A DNA stretch of 64,000 nt, taken from Methylocella sp. GTDB taxonomy: Bacteria > Pseudomonadota > Alphaproteobacteria > Rhizobiales > Beijerinckiaceae. The stretch spans positions 48,759 to 112,758 of the forward strand of contig DASPVM010000011.1 in the NCBI GenBank assembly GCA_035622375.1, read 5' to 3'. The notes under the pieces were generated by a model, which worked only from the letters and a program-made list of their open reading frames with translations, ran no database searches and was not told the origin of the DNA. This document shows, one piece after another, positions 3,475 to 57,303 of the stretch. Numbering within the stretch: the stretch's first letter is position 1; every line of letters starts with the position of its first letter. A program made the position numbers and the translations under genes.

Positions 3475-6162
3475 ATGCATAGCGTTAATGAAATCCGCTC
3501 GGCCTTTCTCGATTTCTTCAAAAGAAATGGGCATGAAATCGTCCCGTCCTCGCCGCTCGTTCCTCACAATGATCCAACGCTGCTGTTCACCAATGCCGGC
3601 ATGGTGCAGTTCAAAAACGTCTTCACCGGCGCCGAAAAGCGAAACTACACGCGCGCCGCGACCTCCCAGAAATGCGTTAGGGCGGGCGGCAAGCACAATG
3701 ACCTCGATAATGTCGGCTATACGGCCCGACACCTGACATTTTTTGAAATGCTCGGCAATTTTTCGTTTGGCGATTATTTTAAGGCCGAGGCGATCGAATT
3801 CGCGTGGGAGCTGGTTACAAAGCATTTCGGCTTGTCGAAGGATAAATTGCTCGTGACCATTTATCATGAGGATGAGCCGGCCGCGCAACTTTGGAGTAAA
3901 ATTGCCGGTCTTTCTGGTGACAAGATTATCCGTATCAAGACCGACGCCAATTTCTGGCGCATGGGAGACACCGGCCCCTGTGGACCATGTTCCGAAATTT
4001 TTGTTGACCTTGGTGACAAAATACCGGGCGGCCCGCCGGGCAGCCCGGACGAGGACGGCGACCGTTTTCTGGAGTTTTGGAATCTCGTATTCATGCAATA
4101 CGAGGAGCAGCCGGGTGGCCGGCGAATCAATTTGCCTCGTCCTTCGATCGATACTGGCATGGGGCTTGACCGCATGTCAGCGATTTTGCAGGGAGCCGCA
4201 AGTGTCTTTGATAACAACTTATTTAAGGCACTCCGGGGAGCCTTGGCCGAGTTTGTCAAGGATGATCCCGAAGGCAAGCACAAGCCGTCGTTCAATGTCG
4301 TAACCGACCATCTGCGGGCTTCGGCTTTCCTCATCGCCGATGGGGTCATCCCTTCCAACGAGGGGCGCGGCTATGTGCTGCGCCGCATCATGCGCCGCGC
4401 CATGCGCCACGCGCAAATGCTCGGGGCTCGAGAGCCTTTGATGTGGAAGCTTGCGCCAACACTTATCCGCGAGATGGGGCAAGCCTATACAGAACTTCTG
4501 CGGGCCGAGCCCCTCATTATCGAAACCCTGCGCCTCGAAGAAACCAAGTTTCGCGATACACTGGCGCGCGGGCTAGCAATCCTCGAGGAAGAAACACGCG
4601 CTTTGCCCGCGGGCGGAACCTTAGCCGGCGCCACCGCCTTCAAACTCTATGACACTTACGGCTTCCCCCTCGACCTCACGCAGGATGCCCTGCGCGCACG
4701 CGGCCTTAACGTGGACGTTGAGGGATTCGATGCGGCGATGGAGCAGCAGCGCGCGGAAGCGCGCAAAGCTTGGGCGGGGTCGGGGGAACTTGCCACCGAG
4801 TCGCTATGGTTTGCCGTTAAGGAAAAAACCGGCGCCACCGAGTTTCTTGGCTATGACACCGAACGGGCGGAAGGCCTCATCACCGCTCTCATCAAGGATG
4901 GGAAAGAAGTTTCGGCCTTGGGAGCGGGCGAGCGCGGTATCGTCATCCTCAATCAGACGCCGTTTTATGGCGAATCCGGCGGTCAGGTTGGCGATACTGG
5001 ATTGATGCAAGCGAACGGCATCCGGTTTCGCGTCACCGGCACACAGAAGAAACTTGGCAGCGTCTTCGCTCATGAGGGGATCGTCGAAGAGGGGCAGCTG
5101 CGCCTCGATTCGGCGCTCCAGCTCCTCGTCGATCATCAGCGCCGGAAGGCCTTGCGCGCCAACCACTCGGCGACCCACCTCTTGCATGAAGCGCTCCGCC
5201 ATGTGCTTGGCCCGCATGTCGCGCAGAAAGGCTCGCTCGTTGCTCCCGATCGGCTGCGCTTTGATTTTACGCACCAGAAGCCGATGAGTGCCGATGAGAT
5301 GGCGTGTGTCGAAGACATGGCTAACCGCGCGGTTCTGCAAAATACGCCTGTCGAGACGCATTTAATGAGCCTTGACGACGCAATGCGCACCGGTGCGCGC
5401 GCTCTCTTTGGCGAGAAATATGGCGACGAGGTTCGCGTCGTCTCCATGGGCTGTATCGATGGCGGGGACGAAGGAGAGGCGGTATCCCTTGGCGCGCCTT
5501 TTTCGACCGAGCTTTGCGGCGGCACCCATGTCTCGCGCACGGGAGATATTGGCATCATTACCATTATCTCACAAGGCGCCGTCGCGGCTGGTGTGCGCCG
5601 CATCGAGGCGAAAACCGCTGAGGCGGCGCGGCACCACCTCAATACCCAGGTACAACGGCTACATGAGATTGCAGCGCTCCTCAAGACACCCGAAGAGGGA
5701 GCCGATAAACGCCTCGCGAGCCTCATCGAGGAGAGCCGCAACCTGCAGCGCGATCTCAACGACGCGCGGCGCAAGCTTGCGCTCGCGGGCAGCAGTTCCG
5801 CCGCTGGACCGGAGCAGCAGGTCGGCGGCGTGAAGTTTCTAGGCCGCGTCGTCTCCGGTATTGGCATGAAGGATCTAAAACCGCTCGCGGACGAGGCAAA
5901 GCAAAGCATTGGCTCGGGGGTTGTCGCGATTGTTGGCCTCGATAGCGAGGGCAAGGCTGGCCTTGTCGTCGGTGTTACGCCTGATTTGACAGAGCGGTTT
6001 GATGCCGTTCAATTGGCGCGTTCGGCGGCCGCCAAGCTCGGCGGCAAGGGTGGCGGTGGCCGGCGAGATCTGGCGCAAGCGGGAGGTCCCGACGGCGCAG
6101 CAGCAGAGGCAGCACTCTCGGCCATTAGACAGGCGCTTGGCCAGCCGGCGAGTGTCTGCTGA
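3475..6162 (+). CDS. alaS: Alanine--tRNA ligase
   Basis: 895 aa. Class II AlaRS core ([23 protein letters not shown]), editing-domain HxxxH (HSATHLLH), and a C-terminal GGKGGGG DHHA1-type tail. Confidence 0.97.
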
Positions 6163-18892: not shown

Positions 18893-20641
18893 ATGGATGA
18901 TCAGCTGGCAACTACCAGAGGGGAAGGCCTGCCGGCTTTTCCGTGGTTGAAATTTTATCCTCCAGGTGTTCCCGCCGCGATTGAGGAACTGCCGTACGAC
19001 TTTCTTGGCGAAATTCCGGCACGGTTAGCCGCGCGCAAGCCAGATGCCGCGGCGTTCACGACAGTTATGCCAAATGGCTCTGCGGCGAGCCTCACCTTCG
19101 CTGAACTAGAACGTTACTCCGATGATTTTGCCGCCTACCTTAGGCAAACGCTCCACCTCAATGCGGGTGATAGGGTTGCCATCCAGATTCCGAATGGCCT
19201 GCCTTATCCCGTCGTGGCCTTTGGTACTTTCAAAGCGGGCTGCGTCCTTGTCAATGTTAATCCGCTTTATACGGCGCATGAGATGGTGCACCTTTTTCAA
19301 GACGCCGAGCCAGCTGCCATCGTTTCGATCAATATGTTCGCCGATAAGCTTGGCGAGGCAATTGAGCAGGTCCCTATTCCCCACATCATCCTCACGGAGG
19401 CGGCCAGCCTCTTTCCAATGCCGACGCGGCGTCTCATTGGCTTCGTCCAGAAATACATCCGGAAGGAGGTACCAAAACCGCGCTTCTTGCACACTCCATT
19501 TGCCAGAGCTCTCGCGGCTGGCGCCGCCAGTATACGCGCTGGCGCGCGGGTCAAGGATTACACGAAGGGCCTCGACCAAAATGCTCTCGCCTGTTTGCAA
19601 TACACGGGAGGCACGACGGGCGTTAGCAAAGGAGCCGTGCTCACTCACCGAAATATGCTCATGAATGTAGCGCAGTTTCTGACATTGCATAAAGACAATA
19701 TACTCGAAAGCGACCACGTCCTCACCGTGCTGCCGCTCTACCACGTCTTTGCTTTCACGGTGAATCTTCTCGGCTTTTTCACCCGCGGCGCGCATAATGT
19801 GCTGATCCCGAGTCCAAGGCCTCTCACCAATCTCCGGCAGGCTTTTGAAAGGATCCCCATCACCTTCATCACGGGGGTGAACACGCTTTTCAACGGCCTT
19901 GTGAATTCGCCCTGGTTTGCGACTAATCCCCCGCGGAGCCTGCGAATATCCGTCGCTGGCGGCATGGCGTTGCAAAACTCCGTCGCCGCGCGCTGGCAGG
20001 AAGTTACGGGAACCCAGGTGGTGGAGGGTTATGGCCTCAGCGAAGCGTCTCCCGTCGTGTCGTGCAACCCGGCGACGAAGGTGAAAGCCGGAACCATTGG
20101 TATCCCGCTCCCATCAACGGAAATAAAATGCGTCGATGATGAGGGCAGGGAGGTTGCCATTGGTCAGCCTGGTGAACTCATCGTGCGGGGCCCGCAGGTC
20201 ATGCCGTGCTACTGGCGCCAACCGGAGGAAACCCGCAGCGCATTGCGCGATGGATGGCTCTATACAGGCGATATCGGCAAGATGGATGACGAGGGCTATT
20301 TCAGGATTATAGACCGGCGCAAGGATATGATCCTTGTCTCGGGCTTTAATGTCTACCCAAGCGAAGTGGAGGACGTCCTCTCGTGCCTGCCGGGCGTGCG
20401 CGAATGCGCCGTCATCGGCGTCCCGGATCCGGCGACGGGCGAGGCGGTCAAAGCCTATATTGCGCGCGAAGACCCATCTCTCGATCGCGCTGCCATTCGC
20501 GAGTTTTGCAAGGGAGAGCTCGCCGCTTACAAAGTTCCTAAATTCATCGAATTCCGTGAAGACCTGCCAAAATCGAATGTCGGTAAAATTTTGCGCCGGC
20601 AGCTTCGCCAAGAGCATCTTGCCGGTCATAACGAACGCTAG
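18893..20641 (+). CDS. fadD: Long-chain fatty acid--CoA ligase
   Basis: 582 aa. AMP-binding signature LQYTGGTTGVSKGAVLTHRN, then YGLSE, GDIGKMDDEGYFRIIDRKKD, and a C-terminal GKILRR. Confidence 0.9.
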   Translation: MDDQLATTRGEGLPAFPWLKFYPPGVPAAIEELPYDFLGEIPARLAARKPDAAAFTTVMPNGSAASLTFAELERYSDDFAAYLRQTLHLNAGDRVAIQIPNGLPYPVVAFGTFKAGCVLVNVNPLYTAHEMVHLFQDAEPAAIVSINMFADKLGEAIEQVPIPHIILTEAASLFPMPTRRLIGFVQKYIRKEVPKPRFLHTPFARALAAGAASIRAGARVKDYTKGLDQNALACLQYTGGTTGVSKGAVLTHRNMLMNVAQFLTLHKDNILESDHVLTVLPLYHVFAFTVNLLGFFTRGAHNVLIPSPRPLTNLRQAFERIPITFITGVNTLFNGLVNSPWFATNPPRSLRISVAGGMALQNSVAARWQEVTGTQVVEGYGLSEASPVVSCNPATKVKAGTIGIPLPSTEIKCVDDEGREVAIGQPGELIVRGPQVMPCYWRQPEETRSALRDGWLYTGDIGKMDDEGYFRIIDRRKDMILVSGFNVYPSEVEDVLSCLPGVRECAVIGVPDPATGEAVKAYIAREDPSLDRAAIREFCKGELAAYKVPKFIEFREDLPKSNVGKILRRQLRQEHLAGHNER

Positions 20642-20649
20642 GAAGATCA

Positions 20650-21291
20650 CTACCAGCGCAAAAGGCGGCTGCCGGCAACCGCCCCGAGGGCTGTAAGGAA
20701 GGCAATCGCGAGCGTATACCAAAGAGCGACAAAAAATGGCGAATCGTCAGGGCAGTGGGTGGCGTAGAGAAATGCGCCGATTGCCCCCGCAAGGAGCCCG
20801 CCCGCGGCCCCAGCAGCCACTGGGTCGCAGGGAGCGCCATAACGCAGCCAAAGAAGGATGGCGATGAGAGGCGCAAAGCCGAGGAAAGTGATGCTTTTCA
20901 AGCAATGCACCGCATTGGTGCCGATTGCTTTTTGGGTCCAAAGGCTTGCCGGCACAGTGTGGAACTCTAATGCGACGGCGGTCCCGAGAAGAACCGGGAT
21001 AATACAAAGCGCGAGAGCGGCCCGCCTAGGATCGATGCCTGGGCGGGCGAGTCGCAATACCCATAGCGCAGACAGCAAAACCAGCAAGAACGCCAGGCCG
21101 ATCTTAAATAGTAAACGCGGTTCCGTGGCGAGCAGTGCCATGAGGTGAGGCCTCGGCCCGAGGACCACAAAATAAAGGCAGAGGGTGATCGCGACGGCAG
21201 GGATCACCGCGAGGGCAAACGCCTGGCGCAAAGCCACGGGGCGGATTGTGCAGTCCGAAACGAGCGCGCGGATCAGCTCTTCCGTTTTCAC
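20650..21291 (-). CDS. nrsF: NrsF-family anti-sigma factor (DUF1109, six-TM)
   Basis: 213 aa. MKTEELIRALVSD N-terminus typical of DUF1109, multiple TM helices and conserved Cys residues. Its ATG overlaps the stop of the upstream ECF sigma gene (21288-21291). Confidence 0.85.
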   Translation of the reverse strand: MKTEELIRALVSDCTIRPVALRQAFALAVIPAVAITLCLYFVVLGPRPHLMALLATEPRLLFKIGLAFLLVLLSALWVLRLARPGIDPRRAALALCIIPVLLGTAVALEFHTVPASLWTQKAIGTNAVHCLKSITFLGFAPLIAILLWLRYGAPCDPVAAGAAGGLLAGAIGAFLYATHCPDDSPFFVALWYTLAIAFLTALGAVAGSRLLRW

Positions 21292-21935
21292 ATCGCCTCC
21301 GCGCGAAATTTTCTGGCAAGAGAGGCAAGGCCCCGGTGCAACGCCACGCGGACGGCGCCTTTGCTCATGGAGAGGCGCGCGGCGGCATCGGCAATCGATG
21401 CCCCCTCGACGGCGATGGCCCGCACAACTGCCTGCTGCCCTTTAGGCAGCATCTCTAGGTGGCGCCCGACATTCTCGGCGGCAAGATCCGGCGCCGGGCT
21501 CGAATCCATCAGAAGATCCGGAAAATCATCGAGCAAAACGGTGGCACGGCGGCCGCGCCGCCGCAAGGCATCGATGATCTTGTGGCGGGCAATGGCGCGA
21601 AGCCACGGTCCGAATGGAGCATTTTGATCCCAGGTCTGCCGCTTAAGGTGTATGGCCAGCAGCGTTTCCTGCACGACATCCTCGGCATCCGTATCCGCCA
21701 TGCCGGCCGGAGCCAACCCCCGCCGCGCGACGGCACGCAGCATCGGCGCGAGCTGGCGCAGTAGCGTCCGGTACGCGTCAACATCGCCAGCCATGCTCGC
21801 GCGCATGAGAAGGGCCCACTGTTTTTCTCTGTCGCGGGCGCGCACTAGGCCACCACTTCCCTGGTTCGGACCATGCGGTCGACCCGTTACCGTTTCGAGC
21901 AATTTCGCCATCACATTTTTGTCATGGCGATGCAA
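21288..21935 (-). CDS. ECF (sigma-70 family) RNA polymerase sigma factor, SigF-type
   Basis: Region 2 (DAEDVVQETLLAIHLKRQTWD, PWLRAIARHKIIDALRRR) and region 4 (QQAVVRAIAVEGASIADAAARLSMSKGAVRVALHRG). It is translationally coupled to nrsF. The start is uncertain; internal Met codons lie at 21911 and 21806. Confidence 0.9.
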   Translation of the reverse strand: MHRHDKNVMAKLLETVTGRPHGPNQGSGGLVRARDREKQWALLMRASMAGDVDAYRTLLRQLAPMLRAVARRGLAPAGMADTDAEDVVQETLLAIHLKRQTWDQNAPFGPWLRAIARHKIIDALRRRGRRATVLLDDFPDLLMDSSPAPDLAAENVGRHLEMLPKGQQAVVRAIAVEGASIADAAARLSMSKGAVRVALHRGLASLARKFRAEAM

Positions 21936-21946
21936 TTGACGCAGAT

Positions 21947-21972
21947 GTAACGGCGGCGCTCGCCGAAACGTA
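21947..21972 (+). promoter_or_regulatory. Candidate ECF-type promoter GTAACG-N16-CGTA upstream of the DUF2282 peptide gene
   Basis: GTAACG at 21947-21952, a 16-nt spacer, and CGTA at 21969-21972, about 83 nt upstream of the bufA ATG and in the divergent intergenic region. An AAC-containing -35 with a CGT-containing -10 is the hallmark of ECF promoters. Confidence 0.4.
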
Positions 21973-22054
21973 GAAAAAAAAGTAAAGAGGAGGGGTCGCT
22001 CGGTTCAAGGCGATTCATCCGACAGCAACGCATAACCCTTATAAGGAACGCTCA

Positions 22055-22354
22055 ATGTCCAAGTCCAACAAAACAGAGATTTCCGCTGCCACGATTGCCG
22101 CCGCGGTCGCGCTTCTTGCGGTTCCTGCTTCCGCGCAAGAGGAAATGGGGGGGCCAAAGCCTGGCAAGGAGAAATGTTATGGAGTCGCATTGGCGGGAAA
22201 GAACGACTGCGCGTCGGCTACCGCTGGCATGAGCTGTGCTGGGACGTCAAAAGCCGACTACGACCCGGGAGCTTGGATATATGTTCCGAAGGGAACGTGC
22301 GAAACGATGAAGACGCCAAAGGGCATGGGAAGCCTGAAACCAAGTAAGTCTTAG
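22055..22354 (+). CDS. bufA: DUF2282 (BufA1-type) exported RiPP precursor peptide
   Basis: 99 aa with a Sec signal peptide ([12 protein letters not shown]|QEE). The core has four Cys in the DUF2282 pattern: [19 protein letters not shown] and VPKGTCE. Confidence 0.85.
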
Positions 22355-22422
22355 TAAGATAAGAGATGTCTGCGGGGGCTGCTCTTTGGCAGTCCCCCCA
22401 CAACCTCAAAACGGGAATAGCG

Positions 22423-23292
22423 ATGATAACTTCCAGACTGCCCGCAAGCGCCGGGGTCGGTTTCAAACCGCACCATTTCAGCGCCATTTCCGCCGCTCCG
22501 CAACCGGTTGGTTTTTTCGAGATCCACGCCGAAAACTATATGGGGAAAGGCGGCCCTGCACACGCGCAGCTGCGCTTCTTACGGGAAAACTATGCCCTTT
22601 CCATCCATGGCGTTGGACTAAATATTGGCTCGCCCGCCGCGCTCGACCGAGAACACCTCGCGCGCCTCAAGCGGTTACTTGACCTTTACGAGCCAGAGAG
22701 TTTTTCAGAGCATCTCGCCTGGTCTGGGCATGACGGCTTTTTTTTCAACGATCTCCTTCCCATACCTTATGACGAAGCGAGCCTTCGCATCGTAATAGCG
22801 CATGTTGACGAAGCGCAAACGGTGCTCGGGCAGCGCTTGCTTCTGGAAAATCCCGCGACCTATATTCGCTTTGCCCAATCTCAAATCCCCGAGACGGAGT
22901 TTTTACGCGAGATTGCCAAGGCGACCGGCTGCGGCCTTCTACTCGACCTCAACAATGTTTTTATTTCCTCGCGCAATCATAATTTTGACGCGGCTGCTTA
23001 TCTCGCCGGCTTCCCCCTCGACGCCGTTGGCGAGATTCACCTCGCCGGGCATTTCGAGAGTAAGGATGATCAAGGCGATCTACTCTTGATAGATGCGCAC
23101 CAATCGGGTGTTTGCGCTGATGTTTTAACACTTTTTGACGAGGTGATCGCGCAGGCTGGACCGCTGCCGGCGCTGATCGAATGGGATAATGAAATACCGG
23201 CGTGGGATGTGCTTCTTTCCGAGGCTCGTGCGGCCCAGGAGCGGCTGGACAGGGCAGTAAGATGCGCCCACAACGCATCGGCTGCGGCATGA
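22423..23292 (+). CDS. bufB: DUF692 multinuclear non-haem iron-dependent oxidase (MNIO; BufB/MbnB family)
   Basis: [40 protein letters not shown] and GEIHLAGH motifs. ATG 22423 is preferred over the upstream ORF start at 22366. Confidence 0.9.
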
Positions 23293-24077
23293 GCGAGCCG
23301 CCCATGGATGGCGAAACGCCTTTTGCCGCCTTTGCTGATGCGCTCCGCGCCGAAGGCGGCTCTCTTCCAAGCGGTGTCATCGCCTATAATTCGAATGAGC
23401 CGCGCGCGCGTTTTTCGGTTTATCGCAACAATGTGATGAGCGGCCTGATCGGCGCGCTCGAAGCGCGGTTTCCGGCAACCCGGAAAATCGTTGGCGAGGA
23501 ATTTTTCAAGGCGGCAGCTGGAGTATTTGCCAGCGCGCAGCCGCCGCGCTTGCCTCTTATGGCGTTTTACGGCGAGGAATTCCCGCAATTCCTCGCTGGT
23601 TTTGAGCCGGCAAAAGAAATACCTTATCTCGCCGATGTGGCCCGCCTCGAAGCGGCCCGCACATGCGCATATCATGCCGGCGATGCGGAACCCCTCGCGC
23701 TTTCTGCTCTGCGCGATCTCCGCCCCAAAGCTTTGGCGCTAAGCCGCTTTAGCTTTCACCCCTCGTTTGAAATCGTCGCCTCAAGTTACCCGATTGTGAC
23801 AATCTGGGCCATGAATTCCGGCGAGTTGGATCTCGCCCCCATTGAGGATTGGCGCGGCGAGGATGCACTCGTCTCACGGCCGGCAATGAATGTCGAAGTG
23901 CGCCGCTTGTCTCCCGGCGAAAGTGTTTTTTTGCAGCGCCTTGCCAAGGGAGAACTCCTTGGCGCCTCTGTGGCCTCGGCCGCCGCGTGCGACGAGAAAT
24001 TCGACCTTGCCGCCAGCCTTGCCATGCTTTTCTCGGGGCTCGCAATCGGCATCACATCCCTGCCATTGGAGGCTTGA
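23289..24077 (+). CDS. bufC: DUF2063 protein (BufC-type MNIO partner)
   Basis: [32 protein letters not shown] and [13 protein letters not shown] match the DUF2063 N-terminal domain. The start ATG overlaps the bufB stop (ATGA at 23289-23292). Confidence 0.85.
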
Positions 24078-24081
24078 TTTT

Positions 24082-24567
24082 ATGAGAAGGCGCGGCCCGA
24101 ATGCGGGAACCAGGCGAGGTTTCGCCGAATTGCTGCTGGACTTTTTCGCGCTTCTCGACCGATTTCCCCAATCGCTGATTTCCCTCGCCGCTCGCTTCTT
24201 TCCGGCCGCGGTCTTTTGGCGGTCCGGCCAGACGAAGGTCGAAGGGTGGCACTTGAAGGAATCGGCCATTGCTCTCTTCCAGGATGAGTACAAGCTTCCT
24301 TTCATCGATCCCAAGCTCGGCGCCGAGATCGCCGCGGTGTTCGAGCATCTGTTTCCCATTTTGCTCGTCATTGGGCTCGCCAGCCGCTTCTCTGCTTTCG
24401 CCCTTCTCTTTATGACCGCCGTCATCCAGATTTTCGTCTACCCCGATGCTTGGCCCGAACAGGGGGTATGGGCGACCTGCTTTCTCGTCGTCATGGCGCG
24501 GGGCGCCGGTGTTTTCTCCGTCGATTATTTTATCAAGAAAATTTTTCGTCGCGTAAGGCCGAGCTGA
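24082..24567 (+). CDS. DoxX-family membrane protein
   Basis: 161 aa, four predicted TM helices, DoxX-like FPAAVFWRSGQTKV region. It starts 4 nt after the bufC stop, so it is the same operon. Confidence 0.8.
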   Translation: MRRRGPNAGTRRGFAELLLDFFALLDRFPQSLISLAARFFPAAVFWRSGQTKVEGWHLKESAIALFQDEYKLPFIDPKLGAEIAAVFEHLFPILLVIGLASRFSAFALLFMTAVIQIFVYPDAWPEQGVWATCFLVVMARGAGVFSVDYFIKKIFRRVRPS

Positions 24568-24678
24568 CGCTTTTTTCAGTTTCGGCCTTCGCCAGCTGCG
24601 GCATATGTCTGGAAATTCCTTGGAGACGCGCCATTTGTGATTCGATATTCTTTGCGGCAGCTACGCAAGGTGAAGCTC

Positions 24679-25098
24679 ATGAGCACTCAGTTCACTAAAG
24701 GCGAGGCATTCTTAACCTTCGTTTTTTGCGCGGCGATCTTTCCTGGCGTGATTGCTAGCAAGTCTTCTTTCGCGGCTACGCCGCCCGCCATGGCGGCGGA
24801 TAAAGACCACAATGGTACGATCGATCTTGCGGAAGCAAAAGCTGCGGCAAGCGCTGCTTTCGCAAAACTCGATAAAGACGGCGACGGCACTCTCGATTGG
24901 AAAGAAGCCAAGTCACGGCTCGCTAAGGGTGAATTTGCGGTCGCTGACGGGGATAGTGATGGCACCGTATCTAGAGACGAATATCTCGCCCTCACGGAAA
25001 AGTACTTTAATGCCGCGGACGCCAATCATGAAGGCACCGTCGATGCCAAGGAACTTCATTCCAAGGTTGGCCGAGCATTATCTCGCCTCATCCAATGA
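24679..25098 (+). CDS. Secreted EF-hand calcium-binding protein
   Basis: Signal peptide, then four DxDxDG-type loops: DKDHNGTID, DKDGDGTLD, DGDSDGTVS and DANHEGTVD. Confidence 0.8.
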   Translation: MSTQFTKGEAFLTFVFCAAIFPGVIASKSSFAATPPAMAADKDHNGTIDLAEAKAAASAAFAKLDKDGDGTLDWKEAKSRLAKGEFAVADGDSDGTVSRDEYLALTEKYFNAADANHEGTVDAKELHSKVGRALSRLIQ

Positions 25099-25158
25099 AT
25101 GTATGCTAGGCGGTACGTGCCATTCACCGATTAAACTGCTTCACTAACGGTAAAGACC

Positions 25159-26115
25159 ATGCCCTCAAAACTCGATCAGCTCAGAAAAATGACCACCGTT
25201 GTCGCCGATACTGGCGATATCGACGCCATCCGCCGCCTCGGCGCGGTCGATGCAACGACCAATCCCTCGCTTATTCTCAAAGCTGCGAGAATGCCTTCCT
25301 ATGAGCCTATTTTGAGGGAAACCATTATCTGGGGCCGTGATCGCAACCATTTAACGAGCAAAGTTGCCGAGCATCTGACTTTAAGATTTGGCTGCGAACT
25401 TGCCAAGATCGTCCCCGGCCGCGTGTCAACGGAGGTTAATGCCGATCTGTCTTTCGACACCGAGGGAACGATCGCCAAGGCTCGCCATTTCATATCCGAA
25501 TATGAGAAGCTTGGCGTCGGCCGTGAACGCATATTGATCAAAGTTGCAGCGACTTGGGAGGGTATTCGCGCCGCCGAAATTCTTCAGCGCGAAGGTATTG
25601 ATTGCAACATGACCCTCGTCTTTTCGCTGACGCAAGCCGCTGCCTGCGCCGATGCAAGGGCGTTTTTGATTTCGCCCTTCGTTGGGCGAATCCTTGATTG
25701 GTACACGAAGGCAGAGGGAAAGACTTACACTCCAGAGGACGATCCCGGTGTGCAATCTGTCCGGCAAATCTACAATTACTATAAGACTCACAACATCAAG
25801 ACGATCGTGATGGGCGCGTCCTTCCGCAGCAAGGGGGAGATCGAGGCGCTCGCGGGATGTGACCGGCTCACTATATCGCCGCAACTTTTGGAAGAGCTGG
25901 CTGCCGATAGAGGCGAACTCCCGCGTCAGCTCGATCCGAATAACATCAAAGAGCCGCCGAGTGCAAAATTATCGCTCGACGAAAAGACTTTCCGCTATAT
26001 GCTCAATGAAGATGCCATGGCGACGGAAAAACTCTCCGAGGGCATCCGCATCTTCGCGCGAGACTTGCTTGGGCTGCAAGAGCTTGTCTCGAAGCATCTG
26101 CGGGAAGCTGCCTAG
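25159..26115 (+). CDS. tal: Transaldolase
   Basis: 318 aa. [27 protein letters not shown], and the active-site region [12 protein letters not shown]. Confidence 0.95.
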
Positions 26116-26136: not shown

Positions 26137-27165
26137 TCAGGCCGCCGCGCCTGTGCCGGCGACCACCGCCAGGAGCAGGGTAAGTCCGAGTCCGAAGACC
26201 ACGAGAGCGGCGCCGAACTCGAAAACGCGGCCTGCCAAAACGGCCCCATGTGAGCTTGCTTTGGAGTATTTCACTACCGCGGTCTTGGCGTAAACAGCGG
26301 CGCCCGCCAACACTGATGTTGTAATTGCGGTGCCAAGGGAGATCGCCACGACGGCGAGAATACCCGCCTTAAAAATCCCCTGTGCTAATGCAAATACGAG
26401 AACCAAGATCGCGCCGGAGCAAGGGCGTGCCCCGGCGGCGACAATCGTTAGAAGAGCTGTTTTCCAAGAAAAATGAGCTATTAGCGCGTCTGGTTGAGGG
26501 ATGTGCGCGTGGCCGCAGCAAGTATCGTGGTCAAGTGCGCGTGTGCATCCCTCATGGCGATGGCCGTGCGTCGCGGTGCCAGCTACCTCCCTATGAGGGG
26601 CAAAGTAGGGCTTGGCGCCGGCTGCCATGAGGGCCCTTCCTTTGACGTAAACAAGATAGATACCAAGGACAGCGATGCCGGTATAGCTGACGAGTTCGAT
26701 TACCTGCGCCGCCTGCGTCATCCGCGCCGCTGCCGTCTGGAAGACAAAGGCGCCAAGGCCGACGATCAAAACAGCGCTTGCGCCTTGCAGGAAAGCTGCC
26801 CCCAAGGCGATGAGAAGACCCCGGCGCAGAGCTTGTTCATTAGCCAGCATATAGGATGCGATGACCGCCTTCCCATGCCCTGGACCCGCGGCGTGGAAAA
26901 TGCCATAGCCAAGGCTCAGAGCGATGAGCCCGAAGGCCGCCGCGCCGCTTTCCTTGGCAGCGCGCAAGGCACCGCTGAGCATGCGGAAAAAACCTGATTC
27001 CTGCGCCAGGATCCAACCGCCGATTCCCGTGACATTGGCAGCGCCAACCGCGCCCTCGGTCGCCCCCACCGCAAACGGGTGATGGGCACCCTGAGCAAAA
27101 CCAAGCGCAGGCAAAAACGCGAGGGTGATGACCGCGTAAAAAATCAAGATAAGCTGGCGATTCAA
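26137..27165 (-). CDS. Nickel/cobalt-type metal transporter permease (COG2215, RcnA/HoxN-like)
   Basis: 342 aa, multi-TM, GYGIFHAAGPGHGK motif, and a cytoplasmic His/Cys-rich loop (THGHRHEGCTRALDHDTCCGHAH). It is paired with the DUF1007 gene. Confidence 0.8.
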   Translation of the reverse strand: MNRQLILIFYAVITLAFLPALGFAQGAHHPFAVGATEGAVGAANVTGIGGWILAQESGFFRMLSGALRAAKESGAAAFGLIALSLGYGIFHAAGPGHGKAVIASYMLANEQALRRGLLIALGAAFLQGASAVLIVGLGAFVFQTAAARMTQAAQVIELVSYTGIAVLGIYLVYVKGRALMAAGAKPYFAPHREVAGTATHGHRHEGCTRALDHDTCCGHAHIPQPDALIAHFSWKTALLTIVAAGARPCSGAILVLVFALAQGIFKAGILAVVAISLGTAITTSVLAGAAVYAKTAVVKYSKASSHGAVLAGRVFEFGAALVVFGLGLTLLLAVVAGTGAAA

Positions 27166-27186: not shown

Positions 27187-27837
27187 TTATGGGCAAGCGA
27201 TGATGATGCGGCTCGCTAATTTTACACCGAAATCGGTGCCGGGCGACAGGCCGCTGAAAAAAGCTTCCGAGAGTTTTTTGCTCTCCTCCGCTGCCAAGGG
27301 TTTCGACCCCAAGACATTGGCGGAGCAGCCCCTTGGGGCGCTCACCAGGGTTACTGGCGTGTCTTTTTCCATCTCAAACGCGACAAAATAAGTAGGGTCA
27401 TAGATCTGGAATGAAAATGCTTTGGCGGCGCTTGCTGATGTCTTCAGCGGCAGCGTGAAGCGGAGGACAACGTGCTTATCCTCGCGCTCTTCGAGCGAAT
27501 AATCTACCGGCGCTGAAAATTCGAGGTTTTGGCCTCCCGCTTTCGCATAGGTAAAATATCCAAATTCTTCCAGGGATTCGACGTTGGTCTTGGCAAGCGG
27601 CGCGAGCTCTTCCTTTGTCAGTAACTGCTCTGGGCTCCCCTGGCCCTCGGTCACGAAGGCGGAGTACATCTCGTCAAAAGTCCAGTCGTTACGGATCGCC
27701 GCGATCTCGCCCGCGCCATTAAAAACAACCTCGGCGCGCGCCGTGACCCACACGTGCGGATGCGCCGCGGCGCTTCCGTTTAAGGCAACCATGAACGCGG
27801 CTGCGGGTAGAAGGAGTGAGGAAATGCGTTTCAGCAT
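27187..27837 (-). CDS. DUF1007 periplasmic protein (partner of the COG2215 transporter)
   Basis: Signal peptide MLKRISSLLLPAAAFMVALNGSAAA followed by HPHVWV, the typical mature N-terminus of DUF1007. The Met at 27837 is preferred over the ORF start at 27906. Confidence 0.75.
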   Translation of the reverse strand: MLKRISSLLLPAAAFMVALNGSAAAHPHVWVTARAEVVFNGAGEIAAIRNDWTFDEMYSAFVTEGQGSPEQLLTKEELAPLAKTNVESLEEFGYFTYAKAGGQNLEFSAPVDYSLEEREDKHVVLRFTLPLKTSASAAKAFSFQIYDPTYFVAFEMEKDTPVTLVSAPRGCSANVLGSKPLAAEESKKLSEAFFSGLSPGTDFGVKLASRIIIACP

Positions 27838-27974
27838 GCACACAAGCGATGCCTGCGGGGCATCAACGCGGATACTATGCCCGCAAGTTCGGCCGAAGAA
27901 TGGCAAGCCGCCGAGTTTGGCACTGTTTTAAGTTGATCGCTTGGTTTGAATAGGGCATAGACCATTATTCAAGT

Positions 27975-35374: not shown

Positions 35375-35732
35375 TTAGCAGCGCCCGACCTGGATTCGGT
35401 TTTTCACGCACTCGGCGATGCCACGCGCCGAAGGATGCTTTGTGACCTCGCCGGCGGCGAACGAACGGTGAGCCAGCTCGCGGAACCCCATGCGATGTCA
35501 CTCGCGGCCGCTTCGAAGCATATCAAGGCGCTGGAGAGGGCCGGGCTGATCCATCGCGAGGTACGTGGCCGCACGCACCTCTGCCGCTTGGAACCCCGCG
35601 CCGCTCGCTACTGCCCACCAGTGGTTGAGCTTCTACAATCGCTTCTGGACTGATCGTCTGGATATGCTCGAACAACTCCTCCATGAGGAGGACGCACGCG
35701 AACCCTGGCCCCCGAAAGGAGACGACCAATGA
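35366..35732 (+). pseudogene. ArsR/SmtB-family transcriptional regulator with a +1 frameshift (or sequencing error) in a C4 run
   Basis: The first frame reads MVELAAPDLDSVFHALGDATRRRMLCDLAGGERTVSQLAEPHAMSLAAASKHIKALERAGLIHREVRGRTHLCRLEP. Homology then continues in the +1 frame (APLATAHQWLSFYNRFWTDRLDMLEQLL...) to the stop at 35730-35732. The shift is at cccc, 35594-35597. Confidence 0.7.
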
Positions 35733-36074
35733 CCGTATTCCATTCGCTGCCTTGGCTGAACTAGGGGCGAGCCCGGCCGTCGCGGGCGTGGAGCCGCCAG
35801 ATGGCCGGAGCAGCGTCTGACGCCATCTCTCCTCGCTAGCTGTCGGCCTCGGATGACGCCGCTGGCTAATTGCGGCAGCGGAAAAAGCCCCGGCTCGCCC
35901 AGTTAACCTTGTTATCGCCGCATTCGCGAAGTTCGTGTTAATTTTGCTACAGTTTTCCAAATAGTAAGTTCGGCAACGGCGGAAACGGCCAGGCTTTTCT
36001 GGCTTCACCTCAGGTTTTTTGTTACCTGTCAACTGAACATTTTTACGAAGGCGAAGGGTTTGCAGGGGACTCTC

Positions 36075-37388
36075 ATGACGGGCTCGCGTATTGGGTTGTT
36101 GTCTTTGGCCATCCTCGCAACGCTTAGCGCTGGCGGGTGCTCTTTCTTTAGCGGGTTCCCAGTCGCTGGCCCGACATCGGAGGCGATCAAATCCGGCGAG
36201 TCCGCCGTCGCCCCCTATCAGCTCGTCAAACTTTCTCCCGAGACCATCGAAATCCTTGCCAATCACGAGCCGCAGGGCCTTGCCGGCGCCTTCACCGATC
36301 ACAAGCCGCCATCCAAAATCGTCTTCGGAATCGGCGACGTCGTTTCCATCACCGTGTTCGAAGCAGCGGCCGGAGGCCTCTTTATCCCGCTTGAAGCCGG
36401 CGTGCGTCCCGGCAATTACGTCGCTCTGCCAGACCAAATCGTCGATAATAATGGATATATTACCTTTCCCTACGCTGGTCAGGTCAAGGCCGCCGGCCGC
36501 GATAACGTCCAAATCCAAGACGACATTATCAATAAGATCAAGAACCGCGCCATCGAGCCGCAGGTCGTCGTTTCCCTGTCGCAACAACGCACATCCTTGA
36601 TCAGTGTCGTCGGCTCGGTGACGACGCCCTTGCGCTTCGCCGTGCCGTTCCCAGGGGCGGGAGACCGCGTGCTTGACGCGATTACCCGCGCCGGCGGCAT
36701 CTCCGGCCCCGGTTATGAGAGCTGGGTCATGCTCGAGCGCCATGGCAAGCGGGCCACCGTGCCATTCGAGAACCTCGTCATGAACCCGAAGAACAACATT
36801 TTTATCCAGCCGGGCGATCGCATCTACGTCTATCAAGAGCAGCAAAAATTCATGGCCTTTGGGGCGACCGGCGGCGCGCCGATCGCCTTCGGTCAAGGCC
36901 TCTTCACCTTCGACGCCTGGCGTCTCAATCTAGCGGAAGGTGTCGCCAAGGCGGGCGGCCTCGCCGATTTCCAGGCCGATCCTGGCGCTGTCTTCCTCTA
37001 TAGGCAGGAGCCGATCGAGGTGGCGCAATTGCTCGGCGCCGATCCGAAACGTTTTAGCGGTCCGCTCGTCCCTGTCATCTTCTGGATCGATTTCCGCGAT
37101 CCGGGCGGCTATTTCCTGGCGACGCGTTTCCAGATGCGCAACGACGACATTCTGTTCATGGCCAACGCCCATTCCTTCGAGGCGACGAAAGTGCTCACCT
37201 TCGTCAGCCTTGTCGCGGCGACGGCGGTGGGGACGACGGCGGCCATCGCGGGCGTGCCGGCCGCGGGCGCGGCGGTCCACGGCCATACCTTGGGGGCGGC
37301 GAACACGAAGACATTCTCTACTTGCATTAATACAACCACCACCAGTGGTTGCGTACCGGGCTCGACCTTCACGACGTCCACGCAGTGA
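36075..37388 (+). CDS. Polysaccharide export outer-membrane lipoprotein (Wza/ExoF family)
   Basis: Lipobox LSAGGC. Polysaccharide-export (PES) motif region YQLVKLSPETIE...FGIGDVVSITVFE and SLBB-like repeats. It has an unusual Thr/Ser/Cys-rich C-terminal tail. Confidence 0.8.
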   Translation: MTGSRIGLLSLAILATLSAGGCSFFSGFPVAGPTSEAIKSGESAVAPYQLVKLSPETIEILANHEPQGLAGAFTDHKPPSKIVFGIGDVVSITVFEAAAGGLFIPLEAGVRPGNYVALPDQIVDNNGYITFPYAGQVKAAGRDNVQIQDDIINKIKNRAIEPQVVVSLSQQRTSLISVVGSVTTPLRFAVPFPGAGDRVLDAITRAGGISGPGYESWVMLERHGKRATVPFENLVMNPKNNIFIQPGDRIYVYQEQQKFMAFGATGGAPIAFGQGLFTFDAWRLNLAEGVAKAGGLADFQADPGAVFLYRQEPIEVAQLLGADPKRFSGPLVPVIFWIDFRDPGGYFLATRFQMRNDDILFMANAHSFEATKVLTFVSLVAATAVGTTAAIAGVPAAGAAVHGHTLGAANTKTFSTCINTTTTSGCVPGSTFTTSTQ

Positions 37389-37709
37389 CGGTTCCAGGTT
37401 TTTGGATCGCGAAGGCGTGAGTCTCGTTTAGCGGGGGATCCTGCCCCGCTTCGCCGATGCGGTGATAGGGCTAGCGCGGCGCACGGCCCTGGGTCCTGCG
37501 CTGCCCCTGCCGATCATCCCCCTGAGTGGCCGAGGCCAGGCGCGGCAATGGGCCGCGCGGAAAACTCGCGGTCCTCGCCGCATCCTTTCATCTGCCTCTG
37601 GCATAGAGGTTGCGTCGCCCCAAATCATTGCGCGGGTGTTGTCCATGCTGGCGTAAGGAACCGTCCTTAAGCCCTCGGCGTGGCGGCACACATTAAGCGG
37701 AGGCTTTGC

Positions 37710-38498
37710 TTGGATAGTTTTGAGTGGAACAAAATTACCGGGGCGATTTTGGGGACCTTGCTCCTCGCCATGGGCCTCGATGTGGTCTCCGGTGTCATTT
37801 TTGCGCGTCCACGGCTCGGCCATCCAGGTTACGCCTTGCCCGCCGCGGCAGAGGTGGCGGCGGGTCCCGCCGCCACGGCGTCTTCGCCTGCGGCCCCGCC
37901 CATCGATGAGCGCCTCGCCGTGGCCGACGTTAAGCGCGGTCAGGCGGACACCAAGCCATGCCAATCCTGCCATAGTTTTGAGAAGGGCGGGGGCGCCAAG
38001 ATTGGGCCGCCGCTCTATGGCGTCGTCGAACGAAACAAAGCGTCGGTCGAGGGTTTCCAATATTCCGACGCGCTCAAGGCGAAGGGCGGCCCATGGACCT
38101 ATCCCGATCTTGATCAGTTTCTCCGGGATCCGAAGGCCTACGCGGCGGGCACCAAAATGACTTATGCGGGCGAGAGCGACCCCGCCAAACGGGCCGACAT
38201 TATCGATTATCTGCACACTTTGTCGGATAACCCGCCGCCGCTTCCGGCAAAACCCGCCGAGAACGCAAAGCATGGCACGAGCAGCGAGCCGCCGCCTGAG
38301 CCGCAACCGGCTCGGCACGCGAGCGCCGAAGAAGCCACTCCGGTGGTCGCGAGCGGAGGTCCAGCGATTGCAATAGAGGAAAGCCTAAGCCTGCCGGCCG
38401 TGGTCCCGGCGGCGGCGAGCGGCGCGCCAGTCAAACCGGCCGAGGTGGTTACACCCGCAGGCCATACGCCGAAGCTGACCGCGCGCCGCAAGAAGTAA
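37710..38498 (+). CDS. Membrane-anchored c-type cytochrome (CycM-like) with long Pro/Ala-rich C-terminal tail
   Basis: SD AAGCGGAGG, then TTG at 37710. MDSFEWNKITGAILGTLLLAMGL anchor, CQSCH haem motif, and MTYAG (Met ligand). It ends in about 90 residues of low-complexity P/A/E sequence. Confidence 0.8.
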   Translation: MDSFEWNKITGAILGTLLLAMGLDVVSGVIFARPRLGHPGYALPAAAEVAAGPAATASSPAAPPIDERLAVADVKRGQADTKPCQSCHSFEKGGGAKIGPPLYGVVERNKASVEGFQYSDALKAKGGPWTYPDLDQFLRDPKAYAAGTKMTYAGESDPAKRADIIDYLHTLSDNPPPLPAKPAENAKHGTSSEPPPEPQPARHASAEEATPVVASGGPAIAIEESLSLPAVVPAAASGAPVKPAEVVTPAGHTPKLTARRKK

Positions 38499-46005: not shown

Positions 46006-47310
46006 CTACCCAGCGCTGAGCGTCATCGTCGCCACCGTGACATGGGGCCAGAGGATGTTGTTGAATATCAGGATCACGAGCTGGGAGTACTGAAGTTGCA
46101 AGAATGTTCGCTCGGGCCAGAAGGGCTCCACTGCCCTAACCAGTGGATCTAGCCTTTCGCGCTCGGGCCGTGGGATGGGGAACGGAGGTCGATACTCGCC
46201 GGGGATGCGCACCCACTCGATCCAGAATGTTGCGCTTGCTGAATAGACGAAGGCATTTGGGACGGGGATCGCTGCGGTAGCTACCGTAGCGGGTGGGGTA
46301 GGGAGGGGCGGAGGCGGAGTTCGCGTAGCGACACCGAGGAAGGGGATATTGCTGACGGTTTCGTACAGGCTACCAACGCCGAGCGTCGGGAAGCCCGTCA
46401 ACGATAGGCTGTCTGTCGTGAGATTAATCGCGATGAAGCCAAGGATATCCTGGTCGGCGATCGCATCGCGCAAGACAGAGTTGGGATCGTCGATGAAGCC
46501 CTGGAAACTCTCCGGGAACGGACCGGTGCTTTGAGAGCCCGGCGCCAAAGTATCCAAGGCGATGTTGATCTCCGGGATAACGTGCTGTGCGCCAGCGCTG
46601 GTTATTGGCTGGATTCCGACGGCCGGTGGATTAGGCCCCGGAGGAACCGGAGGAGGTTGAGGAGGAACAGTATAAGGACCAGGGAACGGGATGGGATTGA
46701 GGCTTGGGTACCCCGTGAAGGGAGTGAGGGGCGGGATAATCGGTTTGCCCGAAGTGGGCGTAGTGCCCGGGTTGGGCCCCTGCATGAGCACCGTGACCCC
46801 GTGTGGGATGCTCCCCATCCGCACGATGGTCGGCTCGTTTACAAGGGTGTTCCCTGTCCCGTTTGTAGGCTGCTGGCTCGGCGGTACGTTCATGAACAGC
46901 CCTGGCTCGATATGCAGTGCCTGGCCAGCTGTTTGCGAGTATCCGGGAGGGTTTACCGTCGGGCCCGGCGCCGGATCGGCATCGCTCACCCGCTGGAGGT
47001 AATGCAGGCCATAGAGATCAAGATCGGGCTGGTTGTTGAAGCCGCGGTTCGGGACCACTCCGGGGATGACCTGAAAGTCGAAGCCGTCAGTCGTCAGGTT
47101 GAGCTCCAGGAACCGATGAATCGTGCTGTTCTCTGGGGGCTGGCTGTTGTCGGGCCTCCAGATCGCGTTAAAGCCGGGACCTCTCCAGCTACCCGGCAAG
47201 AACGCGAGCGGACCCAACTCCAATGCCGTTGTCAGGGGCCCTTCCTGGAAGCGGGGCGGTCCGTGGCCACGTGAATGATGATGGCGATGCTCATGATCTT
47301 CTCGCGACAT
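46006..47310 (-). CDS. Orphan 434-aa His/Pro-rich protein of unknown function (possible nitrobindin/lipocalin-like beta-barrel ends)
   Basis: Long clean ORF with no signal peptide. N-terminus MSREDHEHRHHHSRGHG. LGPLAFLPGSWRGPGFNAIWRP resembles the first strand motif of haem-binding beta-barrel (nitrobindin-like) domains. The central part is proline-rich (PPQPPPVPPGPNPP, TPPPPLPTPP). The C-terminus is LQYSQLVILIFNNILWPHVTVATMTL. Confidence 0.65.
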   Translation of the reverse strand: MSREDHEHRHHHSRGHGPPRFQEGPLTTALELGPLAFLPGSWRGPGFNAIWRPDNSQPPENSTIHRFLELNLTTDGFDFQVIPGVVPNRGFNNQPDLDLYGLHYLQRVSDADPAPGPTVNPPGYSQTAGQALHIEPGLFMNVPPSQQPTNGTGNTLVNEPTIVRMGSIPHGVTVLMQGPNPGTTPTSGKPIIPPLTPFTGYPSLNPIPFPGPYTVPPQPPPVPPGPNPPAVGIQPITSAGAQHVIPEINIALDTLAPGSQSTGPFPESFQGFIDDPNSVLRDAIADQDILGFIAINLTTDSLSLTGFPTLGVGSLYETVSNIPFLGVATRTPPPPLPTPPATVATAAIPVPNAFVYSASATFWIEWVRIPGEYRPPFPIPRPERERLDPLVRAVEPFWPERTFLQLQYSQLVILIFNNILWPHVTVATMTLSAG

Positions 47311-56184: not shown

Positions 56185-57303
56185 ATGGCTAGCCGGGGCC
56201 AGGCGACGGACCTGGGGCTCGGAAAATTTCTCCCGAGTGCCGAACCGCCTCAAGCGGGACCGCGAGGTATGATAAAAAACCGCCTGCAAAAATACGGGTC
56301 CGCTGCCGCGGTGGGAATTGGCGCAGGCATTGCCGCAGCTGTCGTGTGCAGTCTTGCAACACGAGCGACGGTTTCAGCGGCTCTCCTCGCAAATCTATGC
56401 CCCCTTCCCATCATGATCACGATGATGGGCTATGGCGCGGTCGCCGGGGCCTCGGCCGTTGGCGCCGCAGCCGTCACGGTGGCGGCGGTTTTCTATGCTC
56501 AGGAAAAGTTTGGCAACGTCGACGCCGCGGCTCTTGCGGGTTTGACTTTTGTATTCTTCGTTGGTCTGCCAGCGTTCTGGTTAAGCCTTCTCTCGGTATT
56601 AAGCCGCGTCAAGGGAAGTACGAATTGGGTCGTCACGACGAGGGTTGGCAGCTTTTTTGCCCGCGAATACTGTCCGCTTGAACGAGTCCTCACTTATGCG
56701 ACGTCGCTCTCCGCGACCGTCGGCGTTGCCATCGCGATCTACGTCAGTTCGCTCTATGGCGGTTTTGATGTGGCGGTCGATAAAATTTCCTCTGAATTAA
56801 TGCTGCTCATTAATCCTAAGCAGCTGCCAGCTGGTGTCGGCCCGCGCGATATCGCACGCGCCACGGCACTTAGCCTCGCTCCCGTCGCGGCGGGGTGCAA
56901 CCTTCTAGTGATGTTGATCAATCTGTGGCTGGCCGGACGCATTGTGCAGCTATCCGGAAAATTGCCGCGGCCATGGCCGAATATCGCGTGGGAGCTTCGC
57001 CTGCCGCGCATTTACCTCTTAGTGTTCGGCCTGGCCTCTGCTTTAGGGCCATATACCGGCGGCCTGCCGGGGCTCATCGTCACCATCGTTGCCGTGACCC
57101 TCGGCGTCGCCTATGCCCTGCTTGGCCTCGCTACCGCGCACCACCTCTTACGTGGGGCCAGCTTCCGGCTGCCGGCGCTCGTTTTGATTTACCTCAGCCT
57201 CGTAATCCCCCTAACCGCTCTCGCTCTCGTCGCGGCCGGGGTTGCGGACGCCGCTTTCTCCTTGCGGGATCGTAAAAAGCCAGGGGTATCTCCGCAACGG
57301 TGA
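56185..57303 (+). CDS. DUF2232 polytopic membrane protein (conserved rpsR-rplI spacer gene of alphaproteobacteria)
   Basis: 372-aa multi-TM ORF at the conserved position between rpsR and rplI. The start may instead be the Met at 56269. Confidence 0.7.
   Translation: MASRGQATDLGLGKFLPSAEPPQAGPRGMIKNRLQKYGSAAAVGIGAGIAAAVVCSLATRATVSAALLANLCPLPIMITMMGYGAVAGASAVGAAAVTVAAVFYAQEKFGNVDAAALAGLTFVFFVGLPAFWLSLLSVLSRVKGSTNWVVTTRVGSFFAREYCPLERVLTYATSLSATVGVAIAIYVSSLYGGFDVAVDKISSELMLLINPKQLPAGVGPRDIARATALSLAPVAAGCNLLVMLINLWLAGRIVQLSGKLPRPWPNIAWELRLPRIYLLVFGLASALGPYTGGLPGLIVTIVAVTLGVAYALLGLATAHHLLRGASFRLPALVLIYLSLVIPLTALALVAAGVADAAFSLRDRKKPGVSPQR

Follow-up and report, generated by a model that had tools for sequence, protein, structure and literature searches.

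A probable bufferin 1 operon divergent from an ECF16-type sigma factor/NrsF pair in Methylocella sp.

Genes of the locus

The locus described here comprises six genes within a 64,000-nucleotide (nt) stretch of Methylocella sp. DNA (contig DASPVM010000011.1), which is referred to throughout as the window. Four plus-strand genes encode a DUF2282 precursor, a DUF692 enzyme from the family of multinuclear non-haem iron oxidases (MNIOs), a DUF2063 protein and a DoxX-family membrane protein. They diverge from a minus-strand gene pair encoding an extracytoplasmic function (ECF) sigma factor and a membrane anti-sigma factor of the NrsF family (DUF1109). The locus is probably a bufferin 1 operon (Buf1, a 'captophorin' of the DUF2282 type), bufABCD, divergent from its own ECF16 sigma/NrsF pair and operating by the mechanism set out below. 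This assignment is based on the family matches, the score of BufB above the cut-off of its equivalog model, the conserved ligands and cysteines, the divergent promoter pair, and the precedents in Caulobacter and Sinorhizobium meliloti.

All six genes listed in an earlier note on this DNA are present among the open reading frames (ORFs), and their Pfam matches lie far above threshold (Table 1); the searches with DUF2282, DUF692, DUF2063 and DoxX models, which that note had proposed, all returned matches. The gene junctions it described can likewise be read directly from the sequence. The GTG start of nrsF overlaps the sigma stop codon as GTGA (21291-21288), consistent with the translational coupling proposed for the pair, and the bufB stop and bufC ATG overlap as ATGA (23289-23292). 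The bufC stop codon TGA (24075-24077) is followed by TTTT and then by the doxX ATG at 24082, that is, by a 4-nt gap. A Shine-Dalgarno sequence, AGGA, lies about 9-12 nt upstream of bufA.

Some of the gene starts require comment. In the identical locus found on two metagenome contigs, the sigma factor was called with 185 amino acids (aa), the MNIO with 289, the DUF2063 protein with 271 and the DoxX protein with 161. For the sigma factor, GTG 21845 is the most likely start and the longer ORF reaching 21935 is probably unused, since the predicted promoter lies inside the longer ORF, the gene callers settled on 185 aa, and the alignment to the NCBIfam model does not start until residue 34 of the 215-aa ORF. 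The NCBIfam match and the choice of the gene callers make ATG 22423 the most likely start of the MNIO. The bufC homologues listed are mostly about 258-264 aa long, including one of 262 aa with 97% identity, and the overlapping ATG at 23289 is therefore favoured.

At the distal end, a hairpin across the bufD stop codon may mark the end of the operon. The folding energy of this region (81-nt stretch 24545-24625, minimum free energy -27.3 kcal/mol, z = -1.56) is not significant, and the hairpin is missing from the output of the terminator scan. The scan for canonical terminators between 20400 and 25300 returned only terminator-like hits, at chance level and inside genes.

Table 1. Genes and predicted regulatory features of the locus (window positions)
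Feature	Position	Strand	Description
nrsF	20650-21291	-	213 aa; PF06532 E=5.7e-51; six-segment membrane anti-sigma
ECF sigma, longest ORF	21288-21935	-	215 aa; Sigma70_r2 E=1.2e-13, r4_2 E=5.9e-10
ECF sigma, preferred start GTG 21845	21288-21845	-	185 aa; SigF/RpoE7-like
Predicted sigma-F promoter of sigF-nrsF	21865-21890	-	GTAACG-N16-CGAA; autoregulation
Predicted sigma-F promoter of bufABCD	21947-21972	+	(T)GTAACG-N16-CGTA; ends 83 nt before bufA ATG
bufA, precursor	22055-22354	+	99 aa; PF10048 DUF2282 E=2.1e-25
bufB, MNIO (DUF692)	22423-23292 (alternative ATG 22366)	+	289 aa; PF05114 (MbnB_TglH_ChrH) E=3.4e-99
bufC, DUF2063 partner, type 1 MNIO partner (PME1)	23289-24077 (alternative ATG 23262)	+	262 aa; PF09836 E=6.4e-23
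bufD, DoxX-family membrane protein	24082-24567	+	161 aa; PF07681 E=2.6e-14
Hairpin across bufD stop codon, possible operon end	24551-24592	+	without U-tract

The sigma factor, NrsF and the divergent promoters

The sigma factor matches the NCBIfam model PRK12512 (257 bits > 198), which supports its assignment as a putative ECF16-type factor of the SigF/RpoE7 kind, paired with NrsF. The NrsF protein has six hydrophobic segments and two periplasm-facing cysteines, C130 and C180, each of which is kept by at least 90% of 34 homologues. Their counterparts are C131/C181 in Caulobacter, where substitution de-represses the regulon, and C129/C179 in Brucella. The NCBIfam equivalog NF042994 (anti-sigma-F factor NrsF) aligns over the full length with 84.3 bits, below its cut-off of 300. 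Judged by these profile scores, the protein belongs to the Pfam NrsF family but falls outside the strict equivalogs defined by the Caulobacter-type model.

The sigma-F binding sequence of Caulobacter is GTAACC-N16-CGAA, and the ECF16 consensus is (T/C)GTAAC-N17-CGAA. The pattern GTAACS-N16-CGWA occurs twice in the 64 kb against 0.19 matches expected, a soft statistic because the motif was relaxed at two positions (S and W) after the sequence had been seen. Both matches lie in the gap of about 210 nt between the sigma gene and bufA, back to back and facing outward. With the strict Caulobacter motif and one mismatch allowed, the window yields the sigF promoter and one unrelated site, which is the chance frequency; that other site, GTAACC-N16-CGAT at 3793-3818 on the minus strand, lies inside the alaS coding region and is probably meaningless.

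Since the count within the window depends on the relaxed pattern, conservation across species is the stronger argument. The comparison set consisted of 80 independent related loci from species-representative genomes. The divergent sigma-nrsF layout occurs in 31 of them, and in all 31 the intergenic region has one motif per strand. The paired motifs are thus predicted to be the sigma-F promoters of both operons. No sigma-70-type promoter was found by the promoter scan of 20400-25300, and a search for riboswitches or leader RNAs gave no Rfam match at E<=0.1.

In four of the related loci (L049, L050, L052 and L068, at about 5700-6010 in each), the divergent sigF-nrsF pair faces bufB directly and the paired ECF16 motifs are kept. 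There, tblastn detected no DUF2282 gene in the locus, and the short gap showed no precursor-like ORF; these loci may rely on a precursor of a different type or on one encoded at another site.

The precursor and its maturation proteins

BufA scores 88.9 bits against PF10048 (cut-off 22.4). No NCBIfam family was found for it at E<=1e-3, and the Pfam match was used instead; the search against PDB sequences gave no meaningful match. The homologue search returned 5424 homologues, the nearest of which carry the NCBI name 'BufA1 family periplasmic bufferin-type metallophore'. The N-terminus comprises a basic n-region (MSKSNKTE), a hydrophobic segment at residues 9-27, and an A-S-A|Q site where the homologues, too, show an AxA-like pattern. 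This arrangement fits a Sec signal peptide and suggests cleavage after Ala27 to give a 72-aa core, Q28-S99. The protein contains exactly four cysteines, at residues 41, 52, 61 and 82 (contexts EKCYG, NDCAS, MSCAG and GTCET), which are invariant among 59 aligned homologues and would occupy positions 14, 25, 34 and 55 of the predicted core as Cys I-IV.

The description of BufA in the earlier note as a 99-aa precursor with four cysteines in these contexts holds for length and cysteine number; the spacing it gave as that of DUF2282 proteins does not, being 11-9-21 rather than the usual 11-8-21. Of the 120 closest homologues, 116 show the latter, and so do 76 of the 78 locus copies, the two exceptions being the window's own contigs. 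The extra residue sits between CysII and CysIII (residues 52-61, window 22205-22237), the pair expected to become thiooxazoles, and the loop of this subclade reads CAxxSAGMSC, compared with the common CAAG(A/P)GT(S/T)C (for example CAAGAGTSC). The same one-residue insertion is present in four other sequence clusters (P0001, P0002, P0057 and P0087), always with Met before Ser-CysIII (GMSC). On this comparison of sequences, the insertion is a genuine feature of the lineage rather than an error of assembly, and it is the sole distinctive trait of the cluster. MNIOs of the DUF2282 type place little constraint on the residues around the cysteines, and because of this apparent tolerance the modification of BufA is expected to proceed despite the insertion.

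The placement of the DUF692 enzyme in the MNIO family of MbnB, TglH and ChrH, made in the earlier note, is confirmed by the Pfam match and narrowed by the NCBIfam equivalog NF050167, MNIO_BufB ('MNIO family bufferin maturase'), which BufB passes with 360.3 bits > 310. The enzyme scores below the cut-offs of HvfB, MbnB, ChrH and ApyH. The iron ligands of MbnB (His54, His90, Glu133, Asp163, Asn166, His192, Asp208, His210 and Glu239), mapped through PDB alignments, correspond to H62, H97, E142, D175, N178, H206, D224, H226 and E253 of BufB. At these nine positions and at D255, at least 97% of 81 BufB sequences have the same residue as the window protein. Asp255, two residues after the last Glu ligand, probably corresponds by position to the proposed catalytic base of FonB. 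BufB homologues occur on 504 plasmid records; the closest one among species-representative genomes, from a Methylocapsa metagenome-assembled genome (MAG), shares 67% identity, and the exact proteins of the locus were found in two metagenome assemblies only.

A search of the single BufC sequence against the PDB gave no match, and a 51-sequence profile gave a weak one (E=0.2) to a chain of 8HCI named 'RiPP Recognition protein'. The AlphaFold2 model of BufC (60 homologues) has a mean predicted local distance difference test (pLDDT) score of 81.7 and shows a C-terminal strand/helix domain. Its best PDB fold match in Foldseek is chain A of the TglHI holoenzyme 8HCI (E=7.7e-5, template modelling score 0.54, 229 columns, prob 1.00). 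The model, from which the second domain is taken, fits a DUF2063 domain followed by a C-terminal domain of the RiPP recognition element (RRE) type, and BufC has been described in the literature as DUF2063 plus such a domain. BufD matches the NCBIfam HvfX family with 50.6 bits, below the cut-off of 80, and a doxX gene is present in 36 of the 80 related loci. In Caulobacter, BufB and BufC are required, and DoxX is dispensable both for modification and for copper protection. The role of DoxX, which the earlier note had called untested for the present organism, has thus already been put to the test in the model organism.

Proposed mechanism, alternatives and genomic context

The closest characterised counterpart is buf1ABCD of Caulobacter vibrioides (CCNA_03363-03366 = CC3254-CC3257), with the same four genes in the same order and a SigF-controlled operon near sigF-nrsF (Leprevost et al. 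2024, PMC11626156; Kohler et al. 2012, PMC3511200). The likeness to this system and to the SigF regulon proposed in the earlier note is therefore borne out. It extends to a DUF2282 precursor with four cysteines and, as predicted for the window cluster, a Sec signal peptide, to the two NrsF cysteines and to a sigma-F motif of the GTAACC-N16-CGAA type. The window differs in its -35 element (GTAACG), in its buf -10 element (CGTA), and in the cysteine spacing, the published core positions Cys12/23/31/52 of Caulobacter Buf1 corresponding to 11-8-21. The chemistry of Buf1 was solved in Caulobacter in 2024, with support from nuclear magnetic resonance (NMR): the two central cysteines are converted to 5-thiooxazoles, and a disulfide links the outer pair (PMC11626156). 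The oxidation of the cysteines to 5-thiooxazoles, as stated in the earlier note, thus applies to the central pair and not to the outer one. Each peptide coordinates a single copper at a 2N2S site, with an affinity that is femtomolar or tighter (PMC11626156).

The divergent layout is identical in the rpoE7-ecfR7 / SMb20530-SMb20527 locus of Sinorhizobium meliloti, an organism of the same order as the present one (Lang et al. 2018, PMC6180224). Two TGTAAC-N17-CGAA promoters were mapped there by rapid amplification of cDNA 5' ends (5'-RACE), and overexpression of RpoE7 induces its own operon and the four-gene operon that includes the DUF692 and DUF2063 genes (PMC6180224). Peptide chemistry formed no part of the S. 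meliloti work. The S. meliloti cluster lies on the pSymB megaplasmid and is absent from some strains, whereas the window cluster is located among core chromosomal genes (recA, alaS, aroK/aroB, rpmJ, pth, yidC and flagellar hook genes). The parallel drawn earlier with the gold-induced genes (gig) of Cupriavidus metallidurans also stands, since the bufferin paper counts them among the four-gene operons of this type, with a DUF692 gene and induction by metal stress; the host is a betaproteobacterium, and the likeness is taken from the published description.

Other thiooxazole metallophores of the captophorin class, namely oxazolin (HvfABC, Haemophilus influenzae), fontiphorin and Buf2 (BUF_6/12Cys), resemble the window cluster in pairing an MNIO with a DUF2063/RRE partner. 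They also have precursors that are rich in Cys and exported via Sec, form 5-thiooxazoles and are linked to copper, as is predicted for the window cluster too. Their precursors contain EGKCG repeats or Cys-Lys motifs rather than the DUF2282 fold, and Buf2 clusters lack sigma/NrsF genes. An oxazolin-type HvfABC cluster was considered and rejected (HvfB 220 < 360, HvfC 33 < 142, HvfX 50.6 < 80; no EGKCG repeats in the precursor). Methanobactin MbnABC has in common with the window BufB the MNIO fold and all iron ligands. It differs in having a leader peptide instead of a Sec signal on MbnA, a chalkophore with oxazolone-thioamide groups, secreted for copper uptake, as its product, and MbnC as the partner. 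A methanobactin cluster was likewise rejected (MbnB 50 bits < 325; DUF2282 precursor; DUF2063 partner).

By analogy with the work in Caulobacter and Sinorhizobium, from which the chemistry, metal, export route and sigma dependence are taken, the following course of events is proposed. In the resting state, the six-helix membrane protein NrsF would keep the sigma factor inactive. Periplasmic stress, with copper or another thiophilic or oxidising agent as the possible signal, would disturb NrsF, probably through C130/C180, and free the sigma factor, which would transcribe its own operon (GTAACG-N16-CGAA) and bufABCD (GTAACG-N16-CGTA). In the cytoplasm, BufB together with the precursor-binding partner BufC would oxidise the central Cys52 and Cys61 of BufA to 5-thiooxazoles. 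The modified precursor would then be exported via Sec and cut by signal peptidase after Ala27, and a Cys41-Cys82 disulfide would form. The resulting folded mini-protein of 72 residues may chelate one Cu(I)/Cu(II) in the periplasm, buffering copper excess, with DoxX as an accessory membrane protein not needed for modification.

Several observations weigh against the bufferin 1 assignment and its mechanism. The organism is known from metagenome contigs only, and chemistry, metal, export and sigma dependence are carried over from other species. In the buf promoter, CGTA stands in place of CGAA as the -10 element, as it does in 7 of the 33 related buf promoters listed. The AlphaFold2 model of BufA is poor (pLDDT 51.5); its strands at 38-42 and 74-78 lie where the literature describes them, but the model is too weak to serve as evidence. 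The BufC sequence profile did not retrieve 3DEE, a PME1 of solved structure, from the PDB. The rare extra residue in the CysII-CysIII loop means that the geometry of the site, and possibly its metal preference, could differ from Caulobacter Buf1. Finally, the signals of ECF16/NrsF systems vary among bacteria (Cr/Cd/Cu in Caulobacter, hypochlorous acid, HOCl, in Brucella), and the S. meliloti system is not induced by H2O2, Cd or chromate (PMC6180224).

This variety of signals, together with the gold induction of the Cupriavidus orthologues, bears on an unlikely but tangible alternative, in which the same machinery serves another role or answers another trigger. The operon would then protect against reactive chlorine or oxygen species, or against Cd, Au, Hg or Cr(VI), instead of copper, the thiooxazole thiols acting as sacrificial reductants or as ligands of another metal. 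The responses to HOCl in Brucella and to chromate and cadmium in Caulobacter agree with such a role, and the failure of H2O2, Cd and chromate in S. meliloti likewise counts on its side. The survey of the MNIO landscape proposes roles with other metals and ties doxX to oxidative or sulphur stress, and the loop variant of the window adds a Met beside CysIII. However, purified Buf1 picked copper from a metal mixture and binds Cu(I) with a dissociation constant of ~7e-20 M, bufA1 is induced by Cu and not by Fe, Zn or Mn, and the ECF16 regulons that respond to HOCl code for Met-rich peptides and MsrPQ, without buf genes. A separate possibility, in which the small Beijerinckiaceae-related BufA subclade with the longer loop and the Met differs from Buf1 in metal preference or redox behaviour, would require an altered 2N2S site and is considered quite improbable; if true, an altered metal preference would be of note, given that the same organism has a gene for a lanmodulin homologue directly downstream.

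The other two alternatives concern the modification itself, and both are very unlikely. That the modification of BufA yields oxazolone-thioamide pairs of the methanobactin kind is conceivable in so far as the two structures are hard to tell apart and oxazolin was first assigned as oxazolone/thioamide. The NMR data on Buf1 nevertheless favour the 5-thiooxazole, the structure of oxazolin has been revised to the same group, which MNIO-PME1 clusters install broadly, a selective-labelling preprint favours thiooxazoles in bufferins, and BufB of the window lies far under the MbnB cut-off. The rarity of the 11-9-21 spacing, and the many genomes holding bufA genes without an MNIO whose products may stay unmodified, would suit a decayed or silent operon, in which the loop insertion blocks BufB at one or both cysteines and an unmodified four-Cys periplasmic protein is exported. 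Against this, all genes are intact with coupled starts, all catalytic residues of BufB are conserved, the insertion is common to a small diverged clade that keeps every invariant residue, and the DUF2282-type MNIOs are little constrained by the residues around the cysteines.

The rating of the locus in the earlier note as the best candidate for a functionally new peptide system finds no support: the cluster belongs, as an orthologue, to a system that has already been characterised and catalogued and that is extremely common. In a 2025 survey, sigma and NrsF genes are counted among the regular parts of Buf1 clusters, and a 2026 study, in which the class was named captophorins, found MNIO-partner clusters in about half of the Pseudomonadota reference genomes. 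The system is a routine, already annotatable member of a very large family and is not functionally new. What is new is the outward-facing pair of predicted ECF16-type promoters in the window, matched in 31 of 31 divergent loci. The significance beyond annotation is small. The locus can be labelled sigF(rpoE7)-nrsF / bufABCD with confidence, and a Beijerinckiaceae-like metagenomic lineage is added to a family of thousands. The divergent ECF16 promoter pairs of the 31 alphaproteobacterial loci form a clean training set for the prediction of sigma-F regulons, and the loop insertion is a natural variant with which to study the influence of loop length on the thiooxazole copper site and on the substrate tolerance of BufB. 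Work on metal specificity, inducer and the role of DoxX is under way in model systems, and this locus brings no new way of testing them.

As for the surroundings, the nearest named relatives are Methylocella and Methylocapsa MAGs. Directly after bufD, at 24679-25098 on the plus strand, lies a gene for a secreted 139-aa protein with four EF-hands, a lanmodulin homologue. It scores 130.8 bits against the NCBIfam LanM model, just below the cut-off of 135, matches Methylorubrum lanmodulin 6MI5 over its full length (phmmer E=1.9e-25), and also matches Hans-LanM 8DQ2 and an Ancylobacter lanthanum-binding protein. Adjacent EF loops are 12-13 residues apart, as counted from the sequence, and none of the four loops (DKDHNGT, DKDGDGT, DGDSDGT and DANHEGT) has the Pro that 6MI5 shows at loop position 2. 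Membership of this gene in the buf operon was considered and rejected (111-nt gap, no sigma-F motif, such a neighbour in 0 of 80 related loci); because the adjacency is not conserved and the sigma-F motif is absent, the gene is treated as unrelated.

Four long ORFs of 296-457 aa elsewhere in the window have no Pfam match at E<=1e-5: 35523-36896(-), 37428-38318(-), 46006-47310(-) and 56185-57303(+). A gene for a NicO-family nickel/cobalt transporter (26137-27165, minus strand), two genes downstream of the buf operon, is paired with a DUF1007 gene (27187-27906, minus strand); the pair constitutes another metal-homeostasis module, with no sigma-F motif nearby. At 62517-63782 on the plus strand, the window also encodes a chromate transporter, ChrA (PF02417 E=8e-76), chromate being an inducer of the Caulobacter sigma-F regulon.

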